A stretch of DNA of 64,000 nt from assembly GCA_963841305.1 (NCBI GenBank), contig CAWJBR010000001.1:7598-71597 (forward strand), in the 5' to 3' direction. The notes under the pieces were generated by a model. That model saw nothing but the letters and a program-made list of their open reading frames with translations. It did not search any database and was not told the DNA's origin. The position numbers were made by a program, and so were the translations under genes. Of the stretch, positions 21,463 through 64,000 are shown in pieces (position 1 is the first letter of the stretch; the number at the start of each line of letters is the position of its first letter). Source of the DNA: an uncultured Phycisphaerales bacterium (GTDB lineage Bacteria > Planctomycetota > Phycisphaerae > Tepidisphaerales > Tepidisphaeraceae).

Positions 21463-22449
21463 ATGAATCACGTCGAACGCTTTCGCGCGGTCATGAACTT
21501 CCAGCCGGTGGATCGCCTGCCCATGTGGGAATGGGCCATGTGGTGGGACAAGACCATCGAACGGTGGAAAGGCGAGGGGCTGCCTGCCGAGCTGAACACG
21601 GTTTTCGACATCGCCCAGTACTTCGGGCTGGACCCTTACCAGCAGTTCTGGTTCAGCACCACCGAAGACACCATCGAAGCCGTCCAGCACCACGTCGAGG
21701 GCGTGGTGGCCAACATGGACGATTATCTGGCGTTGCGGCCGAAGATCTTCCCCCGGCACACCAAGGCCATCGAATCCATGGCCCCCTGGGCCGAGCGGCA
21801 GAAGCGGGGCGAGGCGGTGGTCTGGATCACCTTCGAAGGCTTCTTCTGGTTCCCGCGCACGCTGATGAACATCGAGCGGCAGATGCTGGCCTTCTACGAC
21901 GACCCGGAACTGATCCACCAGATCAACCAGGACCTTTGCGATTACCACGTCCGCATGTTGCAGAAGATCGCCAAGGTCTGCGTGCCCACGTTCATGACCT
22001 TCGCCGAAGACATGAGCTATAACCACGGACCGATGCTCTCCAAAGAATCGTTCGAAACGTTCCTGTTGCCGTACTATCGCAAGTTCCTGCCGCTGGTTCA
22101 GGAACTGGGCATTATCCCCATTGTGGATACGGACGGGGACGTAACCCAGATGGTGCCGTGGCTGCTGGATGCCGGAATCAAGGGCGTCCTGCCCTTGGAA
22201 CGTCAGGCAAACGTTGACGGCATGACCTTACGCAAGGCCTTCCCCAAGCTGGCGATGGTCGGCCACTATAACAAGCTGGTCATGAACCAGGGCGAACAGG
22301 CCATCCGCGAGGAGTTTGAACGGCTGGTGCCGCTGCAGAAGACCGGCGGCTTTATCCCCAGCGTGGATCATCAGACTCCGCCGGGCGTCTCCCTCGAGCA
22401 ATACCGCGGCTATCTCCGTTTGCTGCGGGAATACGTTCATCAGGTGTGA
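21463..22449 (+). CDS. URO-D superfamily (uroporphyrinogen decarboxylase / MtaA-like TIM barrel) protein, subtype lacking the H-x-C motif
   Basis: Motifs MNHVERFRAVMNFQPVDRLPMWEW, YDDPELIHQIN, DMSYNHGPMLSKESFETFLLPYYRKF. It has IVDTDGDV where MtaA-like enzymes carry H-x-C-G. Confidence 0.6.
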   Translation: MNHVERFRAVMNFQPVDRLPMWEWAMWWDKTIERWKGEGLPAELNTVFDIAQYFGLDPYQQFWFSTTEDTIEAVQHHVEGVVANMDDYLALRPKIFPRHTKAIESMAPWAERQKRGEAVVWITFEGFFWFPRTLMNIERQMLAFYDDPELIHQINQDLCDYHVRMLQKIAKVCVPTFMTFAEDMSYNHGPMLSKESFETFLLPYYRKFLPLVQELGIIPIVDTDGDVTQMVPWLLDAGIKGVLPLERQANVDGMTLRKAFPKLAMVGHYNKLVMNQGEQAIREEFERLVPLQKTGGFIPSVDHQTPPGVSLEQYRGYLRLLREYVHQV

Positions 22450-22578
22450 TAAACGGCATTTCCCGGAGATGTTGCCGAGGGATATTCTGCAGTCGGATGT
22501 TTCCTTGGGGGCGACCCTTGTGTTTTGGCCGGATCGGCTCAGAGCCGGCCGGATTGTTTTCGGCAGGCTTGGGGAGTC

Positions 22579-22960
22579 AGGCCGGTTGGACTGGCTGTCC
22601 ACTACGGCTTTGTCCCAGCCGATCCCCTTTTCCCGTCCCACTCGCTGGAGTAGTTCGCTCAGCAGTTTTTTCCAGATGCCACGGCGCTGCCAGTATCGCA
22701 GCCGTCGCCAACAGGTGACGCCCGATCCGCACCCCATTTCCGTCGGCAACATCCACCAAGGGATGCCTCCTTGCCGCGCGTCATGCCCAAGACAGTATAG
22801 GAGGCTATTTTTGAAACAGTTTCTAAGTCGCCGACTAAGTCGGGCGACCCGGTCGAGCGTCTTTTGCAGGCCCTGGCATCCGGGGAGAATTGCCCGGCTG
22901 GAGCCGTCGGCCCACCGCCCCACGACTCTCTCGCATCTGTTCCACTGGGAACTGGGCAAG
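22579..22960 (-). mobile_element. Decayed N-terminal fragment of an IS5-group transposase (DUF4096-type); no DDE domain
   Basis: The minus-strand translation reads ...GGIPWWMLPTEMGCGSGVTCWRRLRYWQRRGIWKKLLSELLQRVGREKGIGWDKAVVDSQSNRP. This matches the remembered I/VPWR.LP.E.G.GSG.TCWRRLR.W...GVW..L......IDWS.AVVDS pattern. It is embedded in a longer spurious ORF, and I found no inverted repeats. Confidence 0.55.
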
Positions 22961-23153
22961 AGTTTCCATACCGTGTAGATCGAACTGGCGATGGAGAAAG
23001 CCGGCGAATTCTTTCGCACCGTTCCCGGCATCCGTGTCAAAGTGCAAGAGAACAGTCAAATCGTCCATTTTCTTTTACCGAAAACAGACTACAACCACAA
23101 AAGCGTGGGAACGTTGTCGCTAATTTCCATGTAACCTGCACTATGGATGCCTT

Positions 23154-24251
23154 ATGGAACTGAAATCCAAACCCGATTTTGCCCAAGCCATGGGCCGAAT
23201 TGACGCCTGGTTCGCTCATGAATTGTTGGACCGGCCGCCAGTCCGGTTCTCGGAGCACAACGCGGAGTATTCCGGGGGGCCGGCGCTGGCCGGCCGAAGC
23301 TGGCCGGACCTGAAATCGCGCTGGTTCGACGCGGAATTTCAGGTGGACCAGTTCATCCAGTCCCTCCGCCACCGCACCTTTCACGGCGAGACCTTCCCGG
23401 TGTTCTGGCCCAACCTCGGCCCCAACGTCTACGCCGCCTTCCACGGTGCCGAACTGGACTACGGGGAAGTCACCTCCTGGGTTCGCCACTGCGTGGAGGA
23501 GTGGAGCGATATCCCGAAACTCCAATTCAGCCGGGACAACAGCTACTTCCGAAAGATCGAGGGGATGACCCGCCTGGCGCTGGAGAAGTGCGCCGGCCGC
23601 TACCTGGTCGGCTACACTGACCTGCACGGCAGCCTGGACTGCGCCGCCGACTGGCGCAACCCGCAGCAGTTGTGCCTCGATCTGGCGGACTGCCCGGAGA
23701 AGGTCCACGAGCTGGTCCGCCTGGCCGACGAAAGCTTCCTGCCGGTCTACGACCACTACGACGCCCTGCTCAAGGCCCACGGGCACTTGTCCGTCACGTG
23801 GATGGCCATCCCGTCCACGGGCAAGATGCACATCCCCAGTTGCGACTTCACCAACATGGTTTCCGAGCAGGTGTTCGACGAGTTCTACCTGCCTTCGCTG
23901 CTGCGGGAGGTGAAGCACATGACGCACAACGTCTTTCACCTGGACGGCAAGGGGATGCTGCGGCACCTCAACCGCCTTCTGGAGATTCCCGAAATCCAGG
24001 CCATCCAGTGGGTGCAGGGCGTGGGCGACGACGCGCCGATCCTGCAGTGGCTGCCGGTCATCAAGCGGATTCAGTCGGTCGGCAAGGGGGTGATCGTGGA
24101 TTTGCAGCTTGCCGAATTGGAGCCGTTCATGGAGGCGATGAACCCACGGGGACTGTACCTTTGCATCCCGGCGGCCGAGGATGTCCAGCCGGAGATCCTC
24201 AAGCGGCTGGAGGCGTGGTCCCGGCGGGCTACGGTCGGGTTCACCAAATAA
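23154..24251 (+). CDS. Divergent URO-D superfamily protein, subtype lacking the H-x-C motif
   Basis: Shares block order with the other three paralogs: LADCPEKVHELV (cf. DDPEL...), SCDFTNMVSEQVFDEFYLPSLLREV, NVFHLDGKGMLRHLNRLLE. An 11-nt gap to the downstream GH36-like gene suggests co-transcription. Confidence 0.45.
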   Translation: MELKSKPDFAQAMGRIDAWFAHELLDRPPVRFSEHNAEYSGGPALAGRSWPDLKSRWFDAEFQVDQFIQSLRHRTFHGETFPVFWPNLGPNVYAAFHGAELDYGEVTSWVRHCVEEWSDIPKLQFSRDNSYFRKIEGMTRLALEKCAGRYLVGYTDLHGSLDCAADWRNPQQLCLDLADCPEKVHELVRLADESFLPVYDHYDALLKAHGHLSVTWMAIPSTGKMHIPSCDFTNMVSEQVFDEFYLPSLLREVKHMTHNVFHLDGKGMLRHLNRLLEIPEIQAIQWVQGVGDDAPILQWLPVIKRIQSVGKGVIVDLQLAELEPFMEAMNPRGLYLCIPAAEDVQPEILKRLEAWSRRATVGFTK

Positions 24252-52962: not shown

Positions 52963-55283
52963 ATGGAAAGAGTTATCATGTCCGTTCAGTGGAAACTGAA
53001 AGCATGCGCGGCCGGGGCGGTGATGATGTCGGTTGCGCTGGCGATGGCGGCGGCCCAGGCCGCGACTGGGCGTCTGGCCGAGGTCCAGGCGATCCTCGAG
53101 CGGAACTTGGCCGTGCGCACGCAAATGGCCAAGGGACCGGGGATGAAGAACGGCGCCGACTACTTTGGCAGCGGGGCGATCCGGGCCAGCGCCTGGGGCA
53201 CGCCCGACGCCTACCGCATCCTGGCCGAGCGGGATGATTGCTTTTTTGACGTCGGGCGGGGCGGGAAAACCAAGGACGGCCGGAAGTACGGCCGGTACTG
53301 GAAGCTCAGCCCGCTTGTGGCCGGCGAATTGCAGTTTGACATGCCCGCCTTGAAGGGCGCTGCTTGCCGGCAGGAACAGGACCTGTACCGGGCCGAAGTG
53401 CGCATGGCAGCGGCCTCGGGCGACCGCGCCGTCCTGGTCAGCTCCAAGGCGCTGCGGACCAGCCCGGATCTGATTCTGACCGTCTTACGCAACACCGGTG
53501 CCAAGCCGCTGGCCGTCACGATCAACAGCTTTGCCTTGCCCAGTGACGAACCGCTCTCATTGGAAATCGATCGCTTCGCCGGAGTCAAAGGAGACATTTT
53601 CTGGTCGAGCCGCCGGAGTCAGGCGGGCGCGCACAAGTACCGGATGTGGATCGGTCTGGCGACGCGGGTGCTCGATGCCGAGGATTGCGCATACACCAAC
53701 AGCGCCGACGCGGCCGCGGTGTCATTTCGGATTCCACCGGGCCAGGCCGTGACCCTTGTCACGGCCGTGACCAGCACGGGCGTGCCGCGGACGGCCGATC
53801 CCGCCGATCCGATTCCTGCCGCTTTGGAGCTTGTCGCTAAGGCAACGCCGGCGTCGCTGGCGATGCAGGAAAAATCGCATCAGGCGTCATGGGATGACTA
53901 TTGGCTGCGGGCCTATATCGCGATCCCGTCGCAGCCGGAGTTCGAACGCTATTACTATGGGGCGCTCTACGGGCTTGGGGCCTCGCATCGCTTCGACAAC
54001 AGCGGCTGGTCGCCGGGCCTGAACGGCTGGTCTACCTACGACACCCAGTCTTCGGGATGGGCCGGCAACTACACGCTCAACTACAACCTGGAGGCGATCT
54101 ATTACGGTGTCTACTCATCCAACCGGGCCGATCTGGATGCGGCGTACTTCCGGGTCATCAAGCCCCTGGCCGACGGCTATGGCGTCAAAGAGGCCAAGAA
54201 GCTGGGCTATCCGGGCGTTGTCATGCCCGGCGGAACCGGCATCGACGGCGCGGTGGTCCATTCCGATCTGGGGATGAGGACCAACGGCACGGAAATCGCC
54301 CTGCCGCTGATCGATCACTGGTTCTACACCTACGACACCGAGTTCCTCCAGAAGGTGTATCCCTACCTGCGCCAGGTGGCCGACTTCTGGGACGCCTTCC
54401 TCATCAAGGAACCGTCGGGGCGGTATGTCATCAAGGGCACGTCCATCTGGGAAGGCCGGCCGCAGAATTACAACTGCGCCAGTGCCTTGGCCTTCGTGAG
54501 GCGGTTCTATATCGGCATCCTCGACGCTAGCGTCGCGCTGGAGGTGGATAGTGATCGCCGGGGCAAATGGCAGGAAATCTTGACGAATCTGGCCGATTTC
54601 CCCACGCGGACTCACGAAGGCAAAACCATGGCTTGTTATGCGGAGGATCAGGGGGAGAAAATTGATCCCACCCTCGGGGCCAGCATGACGATCCCATTGT
54701 ACCCGGTCTTTCCGACGCAACTGATCGGGCTGGGTTCCGATCCGGCGAAGCTAAAGATTTACCGCGACACGCTCCGCGAGTGCGGCCGGGTCTGGTGGTC
54801 CCAGCCCAACTCCTTCGTGCATACCCCCGTGCAGGCGGTGCGGATGGGCTACGACTTTGCCGAAATTCAGGTCAAGTTCAAGAGGTGGCTGTCCCAGATG
54901 ACCTCCAACAACTTCAAAATCCAAGCCGGCGGCTACTTCGAGTGCGTGGGGGCCATCGAGGCGGTCAACAGCATGCTGATGCAGTCGCAGGAGGGCGTCA
55001 TCCGGCTGTTCCCCAACTGGGACGGCTCCGACGCCCATTTCCACCGCTTGGCGCGGTGGGGGCGTTTTTGGTCTCCGCCTCGCTGAAAAATGGCACGGTG
55101 GCCGAGCTGACGATCACCAGCGAGAAGGGCCGGCCGTGCCGGGTCGTGAACCCCTGGCCGGGCCAGCCGGTGACGGTGCGGGCCAATGACGGCAAGTCGG
55201 TGCCGGTGGTGGAACGGGACGGGGTGTTGGAATTTTCAACAAATGAGACGGGATGTTACGTTCTGTTTCGTCACCGAGATTGA
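52963..55283 (+). pseudogene. GH95-like (alpha/alpha)6 glycoside hydrolase interrupted by one -1 frame change near 55051..55064 (pseudogene or assembly error)
   Basis: ECVGAIEAVNSMLMQSQEGVIRLFPNWD...FHRLAR|.GAFLVSASLKNGTV parallels the GH95 C-terminal pattern (EML.QS..G.I.LLPALP..W..G...GL.ARGGF.V). The downstream part lies in track ORF 54780..55283. Confidence 0.5.
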
Positions 55284-55296
55284 AAGGGACAAGACC

Positions 55297-58200
55297 ATGC
55301 GCCGAAAACAGGCCGTCGCGGCAATGCTGATCATCCTCAGTTGGATTTCGTCTGGGGCATCGGCGGTGGAGCCGCGGCCGGTGGCCGCCGGCAAGATTTA
55401 TGCGGTGGAGTACTCGCACGAGGATCTGGGCTACGCCAACTACCCGCACGTCTTGCGCACGGAAAACCGGCTGGAAAATCTTTTCCGCGCCATCCGCCAT
55501 TGCGACCAGACCGCCGATTGGCCGTTTGAATCGCAGTACCGCTACCAGCAGGAGACGGCCGAGCCGCTGCCCTGGTTCCTCAGCGTGGCCTCGCCCGACG
55601 ATCGCGCCAAGCTCGCCCAATACATCCGGGAAGGCCGCATCGCCATCGCCGCCACGCACACCACCGTGCTCACCGACCGCCTGAATGGCGAGTCCGCCGC
55701 CCGCCTTTTTTACGTCGCGGGCCGGCACCTGCCGGATCTGCTCGGCGTGGATTCTCCCAAGGTGGCGATGATCGACGACGTCACGGGCCTTTCCTGGAGC
55801 CTGCCGATCTATTGCGAGGCCGCCCGTGTGCCCTACCTCTTCCACGGCCACAACGCGTGCGGCCGCTGCCGGGAACTGGAAACCGCTCCCATCACCTGCT
55901 GGACCGGGCCGAAGGGCAGCGGTTCGGTGTTGGTTTATAGCAATGTCTACAACCAGGCGCTGCGAGGTGATCCGAAGAAAGTGCTCGGCGACTATGTCGC
56001 CAAAAATGCCGAGCGCGTGAAGCCGGATCGCTTTCCCATTCTCCTTCAAGCCAACGACTTTTCCCTCGCCAGCCTGGACCTGGCCAGGGCCGCCAAGGCG
56101 TGGAATGAAAACAACGTTCCCCATGTGCAAATCGCCACGCTGGAAATGGCCCTCGCGGAACTGGCCAGGCGGCAGACGGCGGAAAAGACGCCGACCGTCT
56201 CCAAGACCGGCCCGTGCCAGTGGATGGACCAGCCGATTACCGACGCCCTCAGTTTCGGCCGCGCCCGCCTGGCCGCCGAAACGCTTCCTGCCGCCGAAAA
56301 GCTTGGCTCGTTCGCACTGGCGGCCCAGCCCGCCAAAGGCGGAGGGTATGCCTATCCCTGGTTCGACCTCACCCTCGCCTGGCACAACCTTCTGTCCAAC
56401 TGCGAGCACACCGTCGGCGCCGCCTGCTGGCGGTGCAGGAACGCCGAAGGATGGCGCCACTATGAAACCGAGCAGGTCGAACACCGGGAGGAAAGCCGCA
56501 TCGCCTCGGCCAAAGCCAATGGCGCCCTGACCGATGCCCTTGGCCGCCTGGCGCAGCGCATCGACGCCAAAGACGGCGCCCTCGTCGTCTTCAATTCCCT
56601 CGGCCAAGCCCGAACCGATGTGGTGATCTTCGAGGCTCCCGCTCACGCCGGAAAAAACCTGGCGGCCATGGATGATGCCACCGGCGCCGTCACTCCCTGC
56701 CAGTGGGTCGGCAAGGATACGCTGGCCTTCGTCGCCGGCCACGTCCCCGCTCTGGGCTACCGCACGTTCCACTTGATCGAATCCGCCTTGCCGGCAGCGC
56801 CGCCGGCCGCCAGTGCCGTTGAAAACGCGTTTTATCGCATTGCACTCGATCCCGCGACCGGCGCCGTCGCCAGCCTCGTGGACAAGGAATTGGGCCGCGA
56901 CCTCGTGAAGAAAGCCGCCCCGCACGGCTTCAACCAGTACCTGCACCAGTGGTTCGACGCCGCCGCCAAGGCGAAAACCGATTGCCACTGGAGCGGGCCG
57001 CAGGCGGACGCCCAGATTGCCGTTGAACGCGGCCCGGTGGCGGATGTCCTTCGCGTCCGCGCCAAGGCCGAAGGCGTCGAATGGCTGGAGCAGACCATCA
57101 CCCTCTGGCACGCCGTCAAACGCATCGACTTTGCCCTGCGGCTGGACAAGAAACCCTCCGGGCGTTCGCTTCTGGACTACGCGGCCAACAACCTCAAGGG
57201 CAAGGAATCCGTCTTTGTTGCCCTCCCCTTTGACATCCCCGGCTTCAAGGCCGTGTACCAGACCGGCGGGGGCGGCGTGGCGGAGCCCGTGCGCGATCAG
57301 TTCCGGGACACCGGCACCGCCTTCCACGCCGTCCAGCATTTCGCCGATCTGTCCAACGAGCAATTCGGCGTCACGGTCAGCCCCGTGGACTGCGCCCTGG
57401 TCGAGTTCGGTTTTCCGCGTTCCGATGTTCTCTCCCGCGCCATGAAAGGTTCCGAATCCGTCTACGAAAAGGCCAGGGACTATCCCAAGGACTCCTCGCT
57501 CTATCTCTACCTCATGGACAACATGTTCACGACGAACGTTCGCGTTGACCAGCGCGGCGAGCACTCGTTCCATTGGGCCTTGCGCAGCCACGGCGGGGAT
57601 TGGCAGGGGGGCAAGGCCGCTCAGTTCGGCGAGAGCGTCCACCAGCCGCTGCGCGCCGGGTTCGTCAACCGCCCCGGCGGGTCATCGGATGCGGTGACTG
57701 GCCGGGGCCTTCCGGCCGGCACCCATTTCTTCGCCTCCGTGGATGCCGACAACGTGGCCGTTTCCACCCTCAAGCCCGCCGAGATCAACGGCGACGGCTT
57801 CATCGTCCGCCTCGTGGAGACCGAAGGCCGCGCCGCCACCGCCAGGGTAAAATTGCCTTTCCTGGGCGATGCGGTTTCCGCCAATGAAACCACGCTCACC
57901 GAAACCGACGTGGCCGACGCTCTCGCGCTGAAAGTCGCCGGTAACGCCGTCGAAGTCGCCCTTGTGCCTTTCGGCGTGAAAACGCTGCGCGTCCAATCCG
58001 CCGCCGCGCCGTGTGCCCGGGTGCGAAAGGTCGCCGCCCAAGGCATTTCCGACATGGAAATCGAGCTTGCGTGGGAGCCGGTGGAGGGGGCGACCTTTTA
58101 CCGCGTTTACCGCGGCGACCAGGCCGATTTTGCCCCCTCGGCCCTCACGCTCGTCGGCATCGCCGATGCACCCCGCCTGCGCGATCGCGTCCGGAACCAC

Positions 58201-58749
58201 GGCACAAGCTGGATTTCCAACCGCCTTGCGCCGGCGACCACGTACCACTACCGCGTCGAGGCTGTCAGCCGCCACAACCGTCGCGGCCCCGCCTCCGCCT
58301 CCGTGGCGGCATCGACGTTGCCGACTGCGCAAAAGCCCTGCCCGCCCGGCCCGGTGGAAGACCTTCACGCCATCCAAGTCAGCCCTCTGGCGCCAGTCAA
58401 TCAGATCAACCTGCTCTGGCGCAGCAATGTCGAGCCGAACCTTGCCGCCTATGAAATTCACCGCTCATCGAAGGCCGGTTTCACGCCTTCCCAAGCCACG
58501 CTGCTGACAAAACAGGCGGTCCAAACCTCCGCCAGGGCCACCGGCTACAAAGGCTTCGATCACCAGATGTTCCTGGACACCCAGGTCGCTCCCGCCACGA
58601 CTTACTACTACAAGGTTTGCGCCGTCACCCGGGCCGGCCGGCCCGGCGCGTTCTCCACCGAAGCCTCCGCCACGACCAAGGCGGATAACGGTCCGGATTC
58701 GCTTTCCATGCCCACGACATCGCCGCCTGTGGTAGGCCCAGAGAACTGA
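55297..58749 (+). CDS. GH38-like alpha-mannosidase with two C-terminal fibronectin type III-like domains
   Basis: Start at ATG 55297 with a signal peptide. Motifs YAVEYSHEDLGY (cf. H.H.D..W), REGRIAIAATHTTVLTDRLNGES, DDVTGLSWSLPIYCEAARVPYLF. FN3-like segments: ELAWEPVEGATFYRVYRG...TTYHYRVEAV and INLLWRSN...AAYEIHRS...TTYYYKVCAV. Confidence 0.6.
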   Translation: MRRKQAVAAMLIILSWISSGASAVEPRPVAAGKIYAVEYSHEDLGYANYPHVLRTENRLENLFRAIRHCDQTADWPFESQYRYQQETAEPLPWFLSVASPDDRAKLAQYIREGRIAIAATHTTVLTDRLNGESAARLFYVAGRHLPDLLGVDSPKVAMIDDVTGLSWSLPIYCEAARVPYLFHGHNACGRCRELETAPITCWTGPKGSGSVLVYSNVYNQALRGDPKKVLGDYVAKNAERVKPDRFPILLQANDFSLASLDLARAAKAWNENNVPHVQIATLEMALAELARRQTAEKTPTVSKTGPCQWMDQPITDALSFGRARLAAETLPAAEKLGSFALAAQPAKGGGYAYPWFDLTLAWHNLLSNCEHTVGAACWRCRNAEGWRHYETEQVEHREESRIASAKANGALTDALGRLAQRIDAKDGALVVFNSLGQARTDVVIFEAPAHAGKNLAAMDDATGAVTPCQWVGKDTLAFVAGHVPALGYRTFHLIESALPAAPPAASAVENAFYRIALDPATGAVASLVDKELGRDLVKKAAPHGFNQYLHQWFDAAAKAKTDCHWSGPQADAQIAVERGPVADVLRVRAKAEGVEWLEQTITLWHAVKRIDFALRLDKKPSGRSLLDYAANNLKGKESVFVALPFDIPGFKAVYQTGGGGVAEPVRDQFRDTGTAFHAVQHFADLSNEQFGVTVSPVDCALVEFGFPRSDVLSRAMKGSESVYEKARDYPKDSSLYLYLMDNMFTTNVRVDQRGEHSFHWALRSHGGDWQGGKAAQFGESVHQPLRAGFVNRPGGSSDAVTGRGLPAGTHFFASVDADNVAVSTLKPAEINGDGFIVRLVETEGRAATARVKLPFLGDAVSANETTLTETDVADALALKVAGNAVEVALVPFGVKTLRVQSAAAPCARVRKVAAQGISDMEIELAWEPVEGATFYRVYRGDQADFAPSALTLVGIADAPRLRDRVRNHGTSWISNRLAPATTYHYRVEAVSRHNRRGPASASVAASTLPTAQKPCPPGPVEDLHAIQVSPLAPVNQINLLWRSNVEPNLAAYEIHRSSKAGFTPSQATLLTKQAVQTSARATGYKGFDHQMFLDTQVAPATTYYYKVCAVTRAGRPGAFSTEASATTKADNGPDSLSMPTTSPPVVGPEN

Positions 58750-58775
58750 CGGGCTATGGTAGCCCCGAATCGGTT

Positions 58776-58812
58776 GCGGCGGAGCCGGAGTTAGCCAATT
58801 CGGCGCCGCCGC
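58776..58812 (+). terminator. Strong GC-rich hairpin after the GH38-like gene (possible terminator or attenuator; no U-tract)
   Basis: GCGGCGG-A-GCCGGA...loop...TTCGGC-G-CCGCCGC. Hand pairing gives 7 bp, one mismatch, then 6 bp (including one G-U), with a 9-nt loop. Confidence 0.3.
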
Positions 58813-58875
58813 TGCTCGCGGAGCAAGGTTGTAGAGTCAATCGAAACGGTTTGGTATCGAATACAGGATATCCCA

Positions 58876-59937
58876 ATGGATACATTTACACCCGATTATC
58901 GGAACGTCGAACTGGCCGCTCGCAATCGGAGGCCGCCGCGGCTTCCATTCTACGAGCACATCATCGGCACGGACACGATGGAGAAGATTCTCGACCGGCC
59001 CTTCGCCGGATTGATGCATGGCGACGAGGCCGACCGCCGCCGGTTCTTCGAGTTGTACAGCGGCTTTTTCCGCGACCATGGCTACGACACCGTCTCCTTC
59101 GAGGTTTGCGTCACCTCCATTCTTCCCGGCGGGGGGGCGTTGCTCAGCGGGCAGGCCGGGCCGATCCAGAGCCGGGCTGACTTTGAAAAATATCCTTGGG
59201 CGGACCTGCCCCGGATCTTCTGGCAACGCGCCGAGCCTTGCTTTGAGGCGCTAGCGGCGACCCTGCCGGCGGGCATGAAAGTCATTGGCGGCGTGGGCAA
59301 CGGCGTGTTCGAAATCAGCGAGGACCTGGTCGGCTACGAGGAGTTGTGCCTGCTGATGGCCGATGACCCAGAATTGTTCCGGGATCTGTACAATCGGATC
59401 GGCGATCTGCTGGTGAGGTTGTGGAGCCAACTGCTGGCCAGGTTCGGCGATGTGTTTGCGGTCTGCCGGATCGGCGATGACATGGGCTTCAAGACGGCGA
59501 CACTGCTGGCGCCGGACACGCTGCTGGAACACGTCGTGCCGCAATACCGGCGGATCATCCAGGTGGTGCATGATTCGGGCAAGCCGTTTCTGATGCATTC
59601 CTGCGGCAGGATTTTTCCGGTCATGGAGGGGCTGATCGAAGCGGGGATCAACGCCAAGCACTCCAACGAAGAGGCCATTGCGCCCTATGACGAGTGGATC
59701 GAGCGCTACGGCTCGCGGATCGGTCTGTTCGGCGGGATCGACACGGATCGGCTGTGCCGGATGAAGCCGGACGACATCTACCGATTTACGCTGGAGGAAG
59801 CAGGCCGCTTCCGCCGCACGGCCAACGGTTACGCCTTGGGCTCGGGCAACTCCATTCCCGGTTATGTGCCCCCGGAAGGGTATCTGGCGATGATTCGCGC
59901 CGGGCGGGAACTGCGCCAGCGGGAAGGCAGGGAATAA
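58876..59937 (+). CDS. URO-D superfamily protein, MtaA-like subtype with H-x-C motif
   Basis: Motifs MADDPELFRDLY, DDMGFKTATLLAPDTLLEHVVPQYRRI, FLMHSCGRIFPVMEGLIEAGI (H-S-C-G). Confidence 0.6.
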   Translation: MDTFTPDYRNVELAARNRRPPRLPFYEHIIGTDTMEKILDRPFAGLMHGDEADRRRFFELYSGFFRDHGYDTVSFEVCVTSILPGGGALLSGQAGPIQSRADFEKYPWADLPRIFWQRAEPCFEALAATLPAGMKVIGGVGNGVFEISEDLVGYEELCLLMADDPELFRDLYNRIGDLLVRLWSQLLARFGDVFAVCRIGDDMGFKTATLLAPDTLLEHVVPQYRRIIQVVHDSGKPFLMHSCGRIFPVMEGLIEAGINAKHSNEEAIAPYDEWIERYGSRIGLFGGIDTDRLCRMKPDDIYRFTLEEAGRFRRTANGYALGSGNSIPGYVPPEGYLAMIRAGRELRQREGRE

Positions 59938-59939
59938 AT

Positions 59940-60953
59940 ATGAAACGAGAAATGATCAAACGGATGATTGCCGGCGAACCGGTTGAACGTTGCGGCTTCT
60001 GGGTGGGCATGCCCCATGTAGAGGCTTGGCCGATCCTGCACCGGTACTTCGGCACTCGAACCGAACAGGAGTTCCGCCGTAAAATCGGCGATGAACTCGT
60101 GTGGCTCAGTCCCCAGTTCTATCCCGACGCCTACCGCGATCCCTCGGGCCGGCCGTTGTTTGATTCGGGTCTGGACCGGGAAAAGCACGCACGCCCGCCG
60201 CTGGCCCACTGCGAAACCGTCGCGGAGGTGGAGCAGTTTCCCTGGCCCAATCCCGACTATTTGAACTTCGATTCCTGCCTGAAAGATCTGCGGCAGGCGG
60301 GGGACGTGTACCGCATGAGCGGGTTCTGGACCTGCTTTTTCCACAACGTCTCGGACCTCTTGGGCATGGAAGAGTACCTGGTGAAGATGTACACCCATCC
60401 CGAGATCGTGGAGGCGGTCACGGATCGGGTTTGCCGGTTTTACTACGAGGCCAACGAGCGGTTTTTCCGCCTGGTCGGGGACATGGTGGACGGCTTCTTT
60501 TTCGGCAACGACTTCGGAACGCAATTGAGTCTGATCTGCGGTCCCGAGCAGTTCGATCAGTTCATGCTGCCCTGGTTCCGCCGCTTTGCCGAGCAGGCGC
60601 ACCGCCACGGCCATCAGGTGATCCTGCACTCCTGCGGCTCGATTCATGGGGTGATTCCCCGACTGATCGAGGCGGGGGCGGATTGTCTGCATCCGCTGCA
60701 AGCGTTGGCGGCCCACATGGACGCCGAAACCCTGGCGCGGGACTTCAAGGGCAAGGTTGCGTTCATGGGCGGGATCGATGCCCAGGAGCTGATGACCAAC
60801 GGCACGCCCCAGCAGATCAAGGCCGAGGTCCGTCGGGTCAAGCAAATCCTGGGACCGAACCTGATCATCAGCCCGAGTCACGAGGCGATTTTGCCCAACG
60901 TGCCCCCGGCCAACGTGGCGGCGCTGGCCGAGGCGGCCCGTGAAATCAACTGA
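59940..60953 (+). CDS. URO-D superfamily protein, MtaA-like subtype with H-x-C motif
   Basis: Start at ATG 59940, 2 nt after the upstream stop (MKREMIKRMIAGEPVERCGFW). Motifs MYTHPEIVEAVT, NDFGTQLSLICGPEQFDQFMLPWFRRF, VILHSCGSIHGVIPRLIEAGADCLHPLQ. Confidence 0.6.
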   Translation: MKREMIKRMIAGEPVERCGFWVGMPHVEAWPILHRYFGTRTEQEFRRKIGDELVWLSPQFYPDAYRDPSGRPLFDSGLDREKHARPPLAHCETVAEVEQFPWPNPDYLNFDSCLKDLRQAGDVYRMSGFWTCFFHNVSDLLGMEEYLVKMYTHPEIVEAVTDRVCRFYYEANERFFRLVGDMVDGFFFGNDFGTQLSLICGPEQFDQFMLPWFRRFAEQAHRHGHQVILHSCGSIHGVIPRLIEAGADCLHPLQALAAHMDAETLARDFKGKVAFMGGIDAQELMTNGTPQQIKAEVRRVKQILGPNLIISPSHEAILPNVPPANVAALAEAAREIN

Positions 60954-61012
60954 CGGCGGCGGCCTCGCGGGGAGCCGAGGATAGAAGAGCGCAACCAATA
61001 CAGGAGCAGACG

Positions 61013-62398
61013 ATGGCGATGATGAACGTGGACGTTGGGGATAAGCAACAGACGAGTTCGCAGAATACCAGCGCCATGCTGATCGTCAGTGTGACGGTGG
61101 CGGCTCTGGGTTCCCTTTTGTTCGGCTTTGACACGGCGGTGATCTCCGGGACCACCGAAGCCCTTAAGCAGGGCTTCGGGCTTTCGGACAATCTGTTGGG
61201 CTTTACCGTCTCCAGTGCCCTGATCGGCACCATGGCCGGCTCGCTGCTGGTGGGCCGTCCTGCCGACTGGGGGGGCCGGCGGCCGGTGCTGGCCGTGCTG
61301 GCGGTCCTGTTCGTGTTCTCGGCCTTCGGCTGTGCCTGGGCCTGGAACTGGTACGCCCTGCTGGCCTTCCGCTTTCTGGGCGGCGTGGCGGTGGGCGGAG
61401 CCTCGGTGGTCTCTCCCATGTACATCACCGAGATCGCCCCGGCCAGGCGGCGGGGCATCTTGGTGGCCATTGCGCAGTTGAACATCGTGGTCGGCATTCT
61501 GCTGGCCTACTGCTCCAACTATGCCGTGGCCGCTGTTTTCGGCGCGGAACACGCGGCCAACTGGCGCTGGATGTTCGGGGTGATGGCCGTCCCCTCGCTG
61601 GCCTTCCTGGTGACGGCGTTGATCATTCCCGAAAGCCCGCGCTGGCTGGTCAAGCGCAACCATTGCTCTGAAGCCGAGCGGGTGCTAAGCCGCTTTGGAC
61701 ATGAGGATCCGGCCACCGAGGTCAGGGAAATCGCCCAGTCGCTGACGGGGGAGATGAGCGGCACGCGCCAGTGGTTGCTGCAGCGCAAATACTTCAAACC
61801 GCTGCTGCTGGCGATCATGATCGCGACCTTCAACCAACTGGACGGAATCAACGCCATCATTTACTATACGGCCGACATCTTCCGCATGGCCGGGGCCGAC
61901 AAGGCCAGCGCCTTGCAGCAGTCGATGATCGTGGGGCTGACGAACCTGGTGCTGACGCTGGTGGCCATGGCCTTGATCGACCGCCTGGGCCGCAAGGCCC
62001 TGTTGCTGGTCGGGTCGGTGACGTTCGTCCTCTCCCACGGCTTGGCGGCCTGGGTGTTCCTGACCCACGCCCAAGGGTGGGTGGTGATCGCGGCGATGAT
62101 GGGGATCGTCGGTTCGCACTCCTACTCGCAGGGGGCGGTGGTGTGGGTGATCATCAATGAACTGTTGCCCAACGCGATTCGGGCGTCGGGCGGGGCGGCG
62201 GTCTGCTTTCTGATGTGGCTGCTGTGCGCGGGAGTGAGTTGGTCGTTCCCGGTGATCGCCAGCAAGTCGGGTGCCGGCGTCTTCGGGTTCTTCGCGGTGA
62301 TGATGGTGCTGCAATTCTTCCTGGTGTGGAAGTATCTGCCGGAGACCAAGGGCGTGTCGCTCGAAGAACTGCAAAAACAACTGAGCGGGCGGGAGTAA
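61013..62398 (+). CDS. MFS sugar-porter family sugar:H+ symporter (XylE/GalP/AraE-like)
   Basis: Motifs LFGFDTAVISG, GRPADWGGRR, IIPESPRWLV, LIDRLGRKALLL, LPETKGVSLEEL. Confidence 0.85.
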   Translation: MAMMNVDVGDKQQTSSQNTSAMLIVSVTVAALGSLLFGFDTAVISGTTEALKQGFGLSDNLLGFTVSSALIGTMAGSLLVGRPADWGGRRPVLAVLAVLFVFSAFGCAWAWNWYALLAFRFLGGVAVGGASVVSPMYITEIAPARRRGILVAIAQLNIVVGILLAYCSNYAVAAVFGAEHAANWRWMFGVMAVPSLAFLVTALIIPESPRWLVKRNHCSEAERVLSRFGHEDPATEVREIAQSLTGEMSGTRQWLLQRKYFKPLLLAIMIATFNQLDGINAIIYYTADIFRMAGADKASALQQSMIVGLTNLVLTLVAMALIDRLGRKALLLVGSVTFVLSHGLAAWVFLTHAQGWVVIAAMMGIVGSHSYSQGAVVWVIINELLPNAIRASGGAAVCFLMWLLCAGVSWSFPVIASKSGAGVFGFFAVMMVLQFFLVWKYLPETKGVSLEELQKQLSGRE

Positions 62399-62426
62399 CG
62401 GGATCTACATTCATAGGAAATCGTTT

Positions 62427-64000
62427 ATGCAAAACAATAGACTGTGCAAAAGAAGAAAGAGGTGGCGAAAGGTGCCGTTGGCGGCAGTCCTGCTGTGTTG
62501 TTGGGTTGGGTGTACGATGGCGTTGGCGGAACGCTCTTCAGCAGGGAAGGATCTGGCTGCGGAGACAAGCCGCTGGAGTATCGAGCCGCCGGGCACGCTT
62601 AAGTCCGAAGCTGGCTCGCTGCTGGTGAAGGACCGTCCGGCGGTGCTTAAGGGCGATGTTCCCGAGAGCTTCCGCCTCAGCTTCAAGGCCCGCTGCCGGG
62701 GCGAGGGGAAGCTCGGGCAGATCTGGGTCTCCTTCCGTTACCAAGGGGAGTTCACCCGCTACGCCTTGGCCCTGCGCCACGGGCTGCTCAATGACCTGTT
62801 CCTGCTGCGCTACCGCGAGCGGGATTTTCCCCAAAGCACCGTGGGCATCGCCAATTGCTACCCGCTGGGCTTTGAGCCGGACACGGAAAACTGGATCCCC
62901 TTCCGCATCGAGGTCCGCGGCCCGCGGATTCTGGCGTGGGTGGGCGACGCCAAGCACCCCCAGCTGGACTACGCCGATCCGACGCCCCTGAGCGGCGGGA
63001 GCATCGCCCTGGGCGGCAGTTGGCACGCCTGCGAGTTCGCCGACGTGACGCTGGAAAAACTGGACGGCGGCGAGCCGCTGGACCTGTACGGCCCCCACGC
63101 CCTGAAGATTCACTTCGGCAAGCGGTCCGAGCCGTCGCTGGGCCGCTGGCAACGCTCCGAAGGCGAGCCGTTCGACGCCGCCCGCGGCTTCGGCTGGGAC
63201 CGGGACCTGCGTCCGCGGGTGATCCAGCGCGGCCAGGTGCCCAGTGCTTTGCAGGACGGGCTGCTGCGCCTGGTCCAGAGCGACGGCGACGCGGTCTTCT
63301 CGGCGGCGGTGCCCGACGGGGAGTACTTGGTGACCGTGCTGGCGGGGGACCCCGACGGCTACAACTACTTCCACGCCAGCGTGCAGGATCGGCCGCTGAT
63401 GGACGTGCGGCTCAGGCCCCTGCAGTACGACACCGAAACCGCCCGCGTGCGGGTGACCGGCGGCCTGCTGAAACTCAAGCTGTTCAATGTGCAAAACGAG
63501 CCGCCCGGCGTGGGCAATGCGATCAACGCCCTGGTGATCGAACCGTGGGCCGAGGCGGCTGAGCGCGTGGGGGACAAGGAATTGCAGCGTCAGCGGGAGC
63601 GAAAGGCTTACCAGCCCCAGGTCGTGACGCTCTCCGACGCCGGTCCCGCCCGCCTGCCCTTGGACGGCCGCTGGCTGTTCATGCCGCTTCAGGACCTGCC
63701 GGCCGGCGCTCAGCCCCAATCGCCGGAGATGAAAGACAACGACTGGCACGTGGTCAGCGTCCCCTCCTTCTGGAATCCCAACGGCTGGTGGATCTACACC
63801 GGGGGTCGGCGGGCGGGGGAAAGCTACCAGCACCGCGACTACGCCCGCGTGGCTTCTCAGACCTTCGATTTCCGCGTCACCCGCGAGGCCTGGTACCGCC
63901 AGTGGCTGCGCTTTGGCCAACCGCAGAAGAGCCGTCGCTACACGATCCGCTTTGACGCCGCCGCCTCCGTCGCCGAGGTCTACTTCAACGGCAAGCACGT
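62427..64000 (+). CDS. Glycoside hydrolase with an N-terminal LamG/DUF1080-like jelly-roll followed by a GH2-type sugar-binding domain; 3'-truncated by the window edge (absent from the ORF track)
   Basis: I hand-checked the codon phase at the 5' end (62427..62582) and at 63600..63692; in between I read it as stop-free by eye only: MQNNRLCKRRKRWRKVPLAAVLLCCWVGCTMA... The reading includes ENWIPFRIEVRGPRILAWVGD...SGGSIALGG and then LDGRWLFMPL, WHVVSVPSFWN, AWYRQWLRF, YTIRFDAAASVAEVYFNGKHV, a classic GH2 N-domain pattern. Confidence 0.65.
   Translation, partial: MQNNRLCKRRKRWRKVPLAAVLLCCWVGCTMALAERSSAGKDLAAETSRWSIEPPGTLKSEAGSLLVKDRPAVLKGDVPESFRLSFKARCRGEGKLGQIWVSFRYQGEFTRYALALRHGLLNDLFLLRYRERDFPQSTVGIANCYPLGFEPDTENWIPFRIEVRGPRILAWVGDAKHPQLDYADPTPLSGGSIALGGSWHACEFADVTLEKLDGGEPLDLYGPHALKIHFGKRSEPSLGRWQRSEGEPFDAARGFGWDRDLRPRVIQRGQVPSALQDGLLRLVQSDGDAVFSAAVPDGEYLVTVLAGDPDGYNYFHASVQDRPLMDVRLRPLQYDTETARVRVTGGLLKLKLFNVQNEPPGVGNAINALVIEPWAEAAERVGDKELQRQRERKAYQPQVVTLSDAGPARLPLDGRWLFMPLQDLPAGAQPQSPEMKDNDWHVVSVPSFWNPNGWWIYTGGRRAGESYQHRDYARVASQTFDFRVTREAWYRQWLRFGQPQKSRRYTIRFDAAASVAEVYFNGKH

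Follow-up and report, generated by a model that had tools for sequence, protein, structure and literature searches.

The 64,000-nucleotide stretch analyzed here (the window; contig CAWJBR010000001.1 of an uncultured Phycisphaerales bacterium) carries two adjacent genes, A and B, for proteins of the URO-D/MtaA fold, set among secreted glycosidases and a sugar porter. The question raised by this locus is what such enzymes do at a site of glycan breakdown. Gene A (58876..59937, + strand, 353 amino acids) and gene B (59940..60953, + strand, 337 amino acids) are both candidates for substrate:corrinoid methyltransferases (MT1-type). Their products are cytoplasmic proteins, probably zinc-dependent methyltransferases of the URO-D/MtaA superfamily. 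With about even confidence, we assign them to a corrinoid-dependent sugar O-demethylase as its methyltransferases on the substrate side; its substrates are probably methylated mannosides. Family A has good evidence behind it, whereas that for family B is thinner. A corrinoid methyltransferase system of a known kind has apparently been recruited to a new use, sugar catabolism.

Fold and His-x-Cys motif of A and B

The reading frames of A and B are both open. The TAA stop of A is followed after 2 nucleotides by the ATG of B, for which a Shine-Dalgarno-like GGAAGG/AGGGA sits within the 3' end of A; the gene boundaries and spacing given in the initial annotation thus stand. The two proteins share only 25% identity. 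Pfam URO-D (PF01208) matched A with 63.3 bits and B with 85.1 bits at a cut-off of 23.9. The NCBIfam models of the MtaA/CmuA/MtbA families (TIGR01463, NF004889, NF040654, and NF041608; cut-offs 235-600) gave 27-40 bits for A and 30-53 bits for B, and the hemE model (TIGR01464, cut-off 303) gave 18.9 bits for B and no match for A. Since both proteins score below the curated cut-offs, they are members of the superfamily that belong to neither characterized family, MtaA or HemE. The pair does not group with the characterized methyltransferases of methylotrophy. Searches of the PDB with single sequences and profiles reached only Methanosarcina mazei MtaA (4ay7; E = 0.007-0.14, about 0.01 for B) and gave nothing significant for A. 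The AlphaFold models were confident, with a pLDDT (predicted local distance difference test) of 93.1 for A and 86.8 for B. In Foldseek comparisons with the PDB, UROD and MtaA were the top matches for A (template modeling (TM) score 0.75-0.78) and MtaA (4ay7/4ay8) for B (TM 0.66). MetE and BHMT ranked lower in these lists (TM 0.4-0.6).

The segments H241-S-C243-G of A (59596..59607, + strand) and H230-S-C232-G of B (60627..60638, + strand) align to the His-x-Cys (H-x-C) zinc ligands of MtaA. They are part of LMHSCG (residues 239-244) in A and ILHSCG (residues 228-233) in B, and HMMER places both HSCG segments on the LHICG of M. mazei MtaA (4ay7). The His and Cys of the motif were invariant in 20 orthologs of A and 16 orthologs of B, which argues against a chance match. 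The placement of (M/L)HSCG at the zinc-ligand position, first proposed from the letters of the window, is therefore borne out. No Cys of A or B is aligned with the third ligand of MtaA. The position is occupied by G-S-G-N325-S in A (59839..59853, + strand) and by S-P-S-H314-E315 in B (60870..60884, + strand), exactly as the initial annotation had read them, and both stretches proved invariant. A further invariant His lies at +21 from the motif His in each protein, within K-H262-S-N-E265 of A (59656..59670, + strand), where it is a candidate alternative metal ligand, and within C-L-H251-P-L-Q of B (60684..60701, + strand). Judged from the alignments, the candidate metal ligands are H230, C232, H251, H314, and E315 in B and H241, C243, H262, and E265 in A.

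The whole 4-Mb assembly was scanned for URO-D-fold, corrinoid, activator, and porter genes. It holds 23 URO-D-fold genes, none of them a true hemE. An alignment and tree were made of all 23, using the sequences of this genome only; with its long branches the tree is a guide, not proof. Two clades were obtained with 95/96 support. Most members of the MtaA-like clade have Cys at the third-ligand position, whereas the other clade (16 genes, including A and B) has His there, except for Asn in A. The missing third Cys is therefore a clade-wide swap to His, with A as the outlier.

The best-scoring URO-D gene of the genome (C2:99348-100394; L095:4348-5394) was considered as HemE and ruled out. It reached 81 bits with the hemE model, far from the cut-off of 303, compared with 178 bits with the MtaA/CmuA models, and is MtaA/CmuA-like. 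It carries a complete H-I-C...G-C motif and is flanked by a sugar porter and an 87% identical paralog of the GH38-like gene of the window (GH, glycoside hydrolase family). A further URO-D-like gene pair within the window (21463-24251) is devoid of H-x-C; its first gene has D-T-D-G at that position and His at the third-ligand position, and clusters on the side of A in the paralog tree.

Gene neighborhoods of relatives of A and B

Corrinoid proteins were used as the starting point for a reverse test, in which metagenome contigs were searched with the corrinoid-protein clade and 80 loci were fetched, 43 of them of at least 6 kb. A URO-D paralog was present within 10 kb in 27 of these 43 loci and an activator of the RACo type in 17, and 12 of the 80 fetched loci encoded a protein with a MetH activation domain. 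A cassette composed of a C2_206599-type URO-D paralog, a corrinoid protein, an MtaA-like protein, and RACo was complete in two contigs (L143 and L147) and partial in three (L127, L153, and L125, the last with RACo on the other strand). The C2_206599-type paralog also heads two sugar porters in the genome studied here.

Genuine members of family A were found immediately upstream of a corrinoid protein in two contigs, L171 and L183. These A-type proteins share 46-49% identity with A and have retained its specific motifs without exception. The order of genes in L183 (7-12400) is SusC, SusD, GxGYxYP, GH92, GxGYxYP, A-type, corrinoid protein, a small open reading frame, and MtaA-like. In L171 (111-14867) it is GH127, a further glycoside hydrolase, an unassigned gene, DUF4432, URO-D, A-type, corrinoid protein, Met_synt_B12-like, MtaA-like, CobW, and a transporter of the major facilitator superfamily (MFS). 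L171 additionally encodes a MetH-activation-domain protein, and its CobW is of the metallochaperone type. The gene clustering expected of an MT1, with a corrinoid protein, an MT2, and an activator, was seen for members of family A (L171 and L183) and for sister paralog types (L125, L127, L143, L147, and L153). It is absent in the window itself, and the genome has the partners in trans. Paralog types that stand upstream of the corrinoid protein fall in the clade of A and B, and those that stand downstream fall in the MtaA-like clade. This split fits the usual order of MT1, corrinoid protein, and MT2; on this reading A and B would both be MT1-type. Because corrinoid proteins and sugar-catabolic genes share same-strand clusters with members of family A and, in three loci, with B, removal of a sugar O-methyl group is the most coherent reading.

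Across Phycisphaerae, Lentisphaeria, and Victivallales, members of family A share 60-75% identity, and orthologs of A adjoin GH38 or GH92 genes. One locus (L196) has an ATP-binding cassette importer, A, URO-D, and GH38 in sequence; another (L198) has GH38 followed at a distance by AraC and A.

For B, 3711 relatives were found in the protein collection and at least 572 in one-per-species genomes. The locus counts given below rest on the best 80 of these at least 572 relatives, 50 of which lie in long loci. They are 58-83% identical to B and come from more than 12 phyla, including Verrucomicrobiota, Lentisphaerae, Planctomycetota, Armatimonadota, Chloroflexota, Acidobacteriota, Bacteroidota, KSB1, and Latescibacterota; the distribution within Planctomycetota is patchy (14 of 301 genomes). 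The commonest same-strand neighbor of B is another URO-D paralog (16 of 86 neighbors). By type, the URO-D neighbors are of the C1_883976 type in 15 loci, of the A type in 8, and MtaA-like in 8. A GH38 gene was present within 10 kb in 15 of the 50 long loci, where about 1 was expected. The remaining neighbors are chiefly carbohydrate genes (GH29, GH130, GH35, and the mannitol dehydrogenase family). The recurrence of the α-mannosidase families GH38 and GH92 as neighbors points to a methylated mannoside as the probable substrate, rather than to pectin sugars such as those of the rhamnose- and fucose-rich glycans considered in the initial annotation. A Sugar_tr porter occurred near B in only 3 of the 80 loci. 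The expected linkage to transporters and glycosidases in other genomes thus holds for the glycosidases and fails for the porter, which was rejected as a conserved trait of B outside its own genome.

Corrinoid proteins accompany B on the same strand in 3 of the 80 loci. L041 has the order GH38-like, MtaA-like, corrinoid protein, URO-D, B, and GH38-like. In L050, B is followed by GH29, GH38, AraC, corrinoid protein, MFS, Pterin_bind, and formate-tetrahydrofolate ligase (FTHFS). The third locus, L080, encodes a corrinoid protein, PfkB kinase, URO-D, a lyxose-isomerase-like protein, URO-D, PhyH, and B. A different setting was observed on a Planctomycetales contig (L005:2869-4781), where DUF1638 and URO-D lie upstream of cystathionine-β-synthase-like and Cys_Met_Meta_PP genes; B, URO-D, and GH38 follow these sulfur-amino-acid genes.

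RACo was present in 12 of the 14 B-positive genomes of the phylum sample, compared with 35% of the other genomes (Fisher P = 2e-4). Outside this phylum, 48 of 50 B-bearing genomes had it. Of the best RACo copies in B-bearing genomes, approximately half are located in Wood-Ljungdahl clusters (CdhD, ACS, Pterin_bind, CooC-like; L096-L115), and some of the type closest to the copy of the present genome adjoin full-length MetH. The co-occurrence shows only that B-bearing organisms run corrinoid one-carbon chemistry. An explanation of RACo by methanol use was rejected, since MtaB was found in only 3 of the 50 B-bearing genomes.

Corrinoid genes and sugar porters of the same genome

The absence of a corrinoid protein and an activator noted in the initial annotation applies to the window; elsewhere the genome holds both. 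An operon at C2:212235-216698 (L087:12235-16698, - strand) encodes AraC, MtaB (552 bits), an MtaC-like corrinoid protein, and an MtaA-like protein, which together make up a methanol:corrinoid methyltransferase system, here in a planctomycete of the Phycisphaerae. The MtaC-like protein (C2:213385-214011) has 209 amino acids and the DxHxxG motif. Two further small corrinoid proteins with B12-binding_2 and B12-binding domains, two activators of the RACo/RamA type, and three cobalamin riboswitches together with a CobS gene (C2:623285-626771 and C2:2449446-2449583) were also found. The organism therefore senses cobamides and at least finishes or salvages them. All three kinds of gene for which a genome-wide search had been proposed (B12-binding proteins, RamA-like activators, and cobalamin genes) are present, and a route for the methyl group, for which no acceptor could at first be named, would be provided by the MtaC-like protein, the two RACo proteins, the MtaA-like enzymes, and the cobamide supply.

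In the window, the gene upstream of A (55297..58749, + strand) encodes a GH38-like glycosidase that is secreted and carries two FN3 modules at its C-terminus. Pfam Glyco_hydro_38N, 38C, 38C2, and fn3 were all matched, in agreement with the initial assignment. Its open reading frame opens at 55186; the likely start is at 55297, ahead of a signal peptide, and the N-terminus reads MRRKQAVAAMLIILSWISSGASA. Paralogs of this gene occur at C2:101171 (87% identical) and C3:58325. Downstream of B, after 59 nucleotides, an MFS sugar:H+ symporter of the Sugar_tr family follows (61013..62398, + strand), which scored 345 bits with Pfam Sugar_tr, 326 bits with the XylE model, and 318 bits with the NCBIfam sugar porter subfamily (cut-off 238). 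After a further 28 nucleotides, a secreted GH2-like protein begins (62427..64000, + strand), which leaves the window and ends approximately 2.5 kb past its end, at L088:3136. Both gaps were correctly given before. The symporter is confirmed by its scores, whereas the GH2 assignment is weaker, with a Glyco_hydro_2_N match of 23 bits lying below the cut-off of 28. Signal-peptide-like N-termini were read from the translations of the GH38-like and GH2-like proteins and were absent from A and B, so the locus combines secreted glycosidases, an importer, and two cytoplasmic enzymes. A promoter and terminator scan of 58600-62600 gave no signal above shuffled expectation.

The module of A, B, and porter is duplicated at C3:31595-35121, on a contig of 119.6 kb, with 96, 90, and 85% identity, and is followed there by a Reg_prop/Y_Y_Y sensor kinase. 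A third, solitary copy of B (96%), flanked by an AraC-type regulator and an NPCBM/F5_F8/FN3 protein, lies 8 kb beyond the end of the window (C1:79516-80523). Each of the seven Sugar_tr porters of the genome, which occupy six loci (C1:68610, C1:882536, C2:97548, C2:202366 and C2:205166 as one locus, C3:33742, and C4:63460), directly abuts a URO-D paralog, for which the chance was roughly estimated at 2e-11. The porter at C4:63460 gave two separate matches and may be frameshifted. RpoB is approximately 90% identical to sequences of Tepidisphaeraceae and Fontivita (Phycisphaerae, Planctomycetota), in keeping with a Tepidisphaerales-like planctomycete. The frame of rpoB (C1:165258-168266; L199:322-3330) encodes 1002 amino acids compared with 1257 in close relatives; approximately 250 N-terminal residues lie outside the frame, and a frameshift or assembly error may account for this.

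Proposed pathway and its alternatives

In the proposed pathway, the secreted GH38-like and GH2-like enzymes would release a sugar outside the cell, and the adjacent sugar:H+ porter would import it. A and B would then take the O-methyl group off the imported methylated monosaccharide, probably of the methyl-mannose type. A small corrinoid protein provided in trans, for which the MtaC-like protein at C2:213385-214011 is the candidate, would receive the methyl group on its Co(I). From the methyl-corrinoid, an MtaA-like paralog belonging to the other clade would pass the group on to an acceptor, probably tetrahydrofolate, and the RACo-type activators would re-reduce oxidized cobalt. A and B, both being MT1-type, may differ in the methyl position or in the sugar on which they act. 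The pairs of B with C1_883976-type or MtaA-like paralogs seen in other genomes would represent MT1 and MT2 enzymes that use a corrinoid protein in trans. O-methyl removal from an imported sugar, already suggested in the initial annotation, thus gains from the glycan context and from the corrinoid clusters elsewhere, and loses the porter link outside the genome studied here.

Several observations weigh against a corrinoid-dependent demethylase. Classical MT1 genes usually adjoin their own corrinoid protein. The window contains no corrinoid protein, activator, or MT2-type gene, and the nearest corrinoid protein is on another contig. No corrinoid protein was present within 10 kb in 77 of the 80 B loci; the three loci that have one exceed chance only modestly (P ~0.04 under rough assumptions), and the 43 loci of the reverse test contained no B-type gene. 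The co-occurrence with RACo was rejected as proof of corrinoid dependence because, with its Wood-Ljungdahl and MetH contexts, it is unspecific. The metal site is a predicted one, and A has neither His nor Cys at the third-ligand position. No stand-alone pterin-binding methyltransferase for passing on the methyl group was found in the genome. The characterized corrinoid O-demethylases act on aryl methyl ethers, and no corrinoid enzyme is known to split an aliphatic sugar methyl ether. Relatives of the organism include aerobes or facultative aerobes. Finally, a search of the literature for URO-D, MtaA, or corrinoid enzymes in the breakdown of glycans or methyl sugars returned no precedent.

Part of this evidence would also suit URO-D-fold enzymes that act on sugars or sugar acids without methyl transfer, by cofactor-free decarboxylation, isomerization, or hydrolysis, with H-x-C as a metal site of a structural or general nature. 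The structural matches to UROD are as good as those to MtaA, TIM-barrel sugar epimerases appear in the tail of the Foldseek lists, A is without a third ligand at the MtaA position, and corrinoid genes are absent from most loci. However, the catalytic pattern of URO-D was not recovered (19 bits with the hemE model for B, none for A), the H-x-C motif, which is invariant, typifies the alkyl-transfer branch, and members of family A hold the MT1 position in corrinoid cassettes. We consider such a role unlikely, while giving it some weight.

Less probable still is a corrinoid-independent role for A, B, or both as zinc methyltransferases of the MetE/BHMT kind, in which a methyl group would pass directly from a small donor to a thiol such as homocysteine. 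Both folds are among the structural matches, with low TM scores of 0.4-0.6, and the invariant His at +21 lies near the position of the extra ligand of MetE. Most B loci are without a corrinoid protein, B follows cystathionine-β-synthase-like and Cys_Met_Meta_PP genes in L005, and a S-adenosylmethionine synthetase is 1 of the 86 neighbors of B. These sulfur-metabolism neighbors are isolated, however, whereas corrinoid cassettes recur for related paralogs, and on general chemical grounds a sugar alkoxide leaves poorly unless a supernucleophile is involved.

The MtaB-MtaC-MtaA-like operon and the setting of the window in a glycan-degrading island also bring to mind extra MT2 isozymes of the methanol system of the genome, working on methanol from methyl-esterified pectin. 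This is very improbable, because MtaB accompanies B in so few genomes, A and B belong to the clade found upstream of the corrinoid protein and not to the MtaA-like clade, and methanol would not need a sugar porter. A biosynthetic direction, in which A and B methylate a sugar or glycan from methyl-corrinoid, can be all but set aside: methyl transfer by this family can be reversed in vitro, but secreted glycosidases, importers, sugar kinases and isomerases, and SusC/D loci make the setting a catabolic one throughout.

Among known systems, the methylcobamide:coenzyme M methyltransferases MtaA and MtbA of Methanosarcina (4ay7/4ay8; TIGR01463 and NF040654) share the TIM-barrel fold and the placement of H-x-C with A and B, at 15-17% identity between MtaA and A/B. 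The third Cys ligand of MtaA is replaced by His/Glu in B and by Asn in A. MtaA works with a small corrinoid protein, whereas A and B have none adjacent, and it uses coenzyme M, which is not expected in the bacterial host of A and B. MtaA has an MT2 role, whereas the gene position of the relatives of A and B suggests the substrate side. HemE (TIGR01464) has the PF01208 family and overall fold in common with A and B, but its scores are far under the cut-off and A and B have no heme context, being surrounded by glycosidases and a porter.

Corrinoid O-demethylases are represented by MtvABC of Moorella, the Odm/Vdm systems of Acetobacterium dehalogenans, and those of Desulfitobacterium. They consist of the four parts proposed here, a substrate:corrinoid methyltransferase, a corrinoid protein, a methyl-corrinoid:tetrahydrofolate methyltransferase, and a reductive activator, and they act on aryl methyl ethers, whereas A and B lie in sugar loci. 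Cassettes of this shape were found for paralogs related to A and B. Unlike in O-demethylase operons, the parts are scattered in the present genome, and many paralogs would share few corrinoid proteins.

Methyl ethers block the degradation of many sugars from plants, algae, and microbes, a problem that anaerobic glycan degraders must also meet. The only described enzymatic removal of a sugar methyl ether, by a cytochrome P450, requires oxygen (PMC6292453). This demethylase, which acts on 6-O-methyl-D-galactose in marine Bacteroidota, is encoded in glycan-utilization loci, needs O2, and makes formaldehyde (PMC6292453). The job proposed for A and B is the same, the removal of a methyl ether that gives an algal sugar access to central metabolism, whereas fold and chemistry are unrelated; the proposed system would be independent of O2 and would conserve the methyl group.

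The locus and its relatives supply candidates for this function, in the form of two highly conserved families with thousands of members. The candidates come with a putative set of partners (corrinoid protein, MtaA-like enzyme, and activator) and with natural operons (L171, L183, L041, and L080). In a wider proposal, which we hold at somewhat less than even confidence, A, B, and their sister paralogs are the substrate arms of a widespread, O2-independent, corrinoid-dependent sugar demethylation in many phyla. The substrate in the present organism would then probably be methylated mannose of algal or microbial mannans and N-glycans, and many methyltransferases would share few corrinoid proteins in trans. 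If true, a sugar-derived source of methyl groups would be added to anaerobic one-carbon metabolism, and many of the genes annotated as "uroporphyrinogen decarboxylase family" in polysaccharide-utilization loci would be accounted for. The system would be an anaerobic counterpart of the P450 sugar demethylases and would open a new substrate class for corrinoid methyltransferases.

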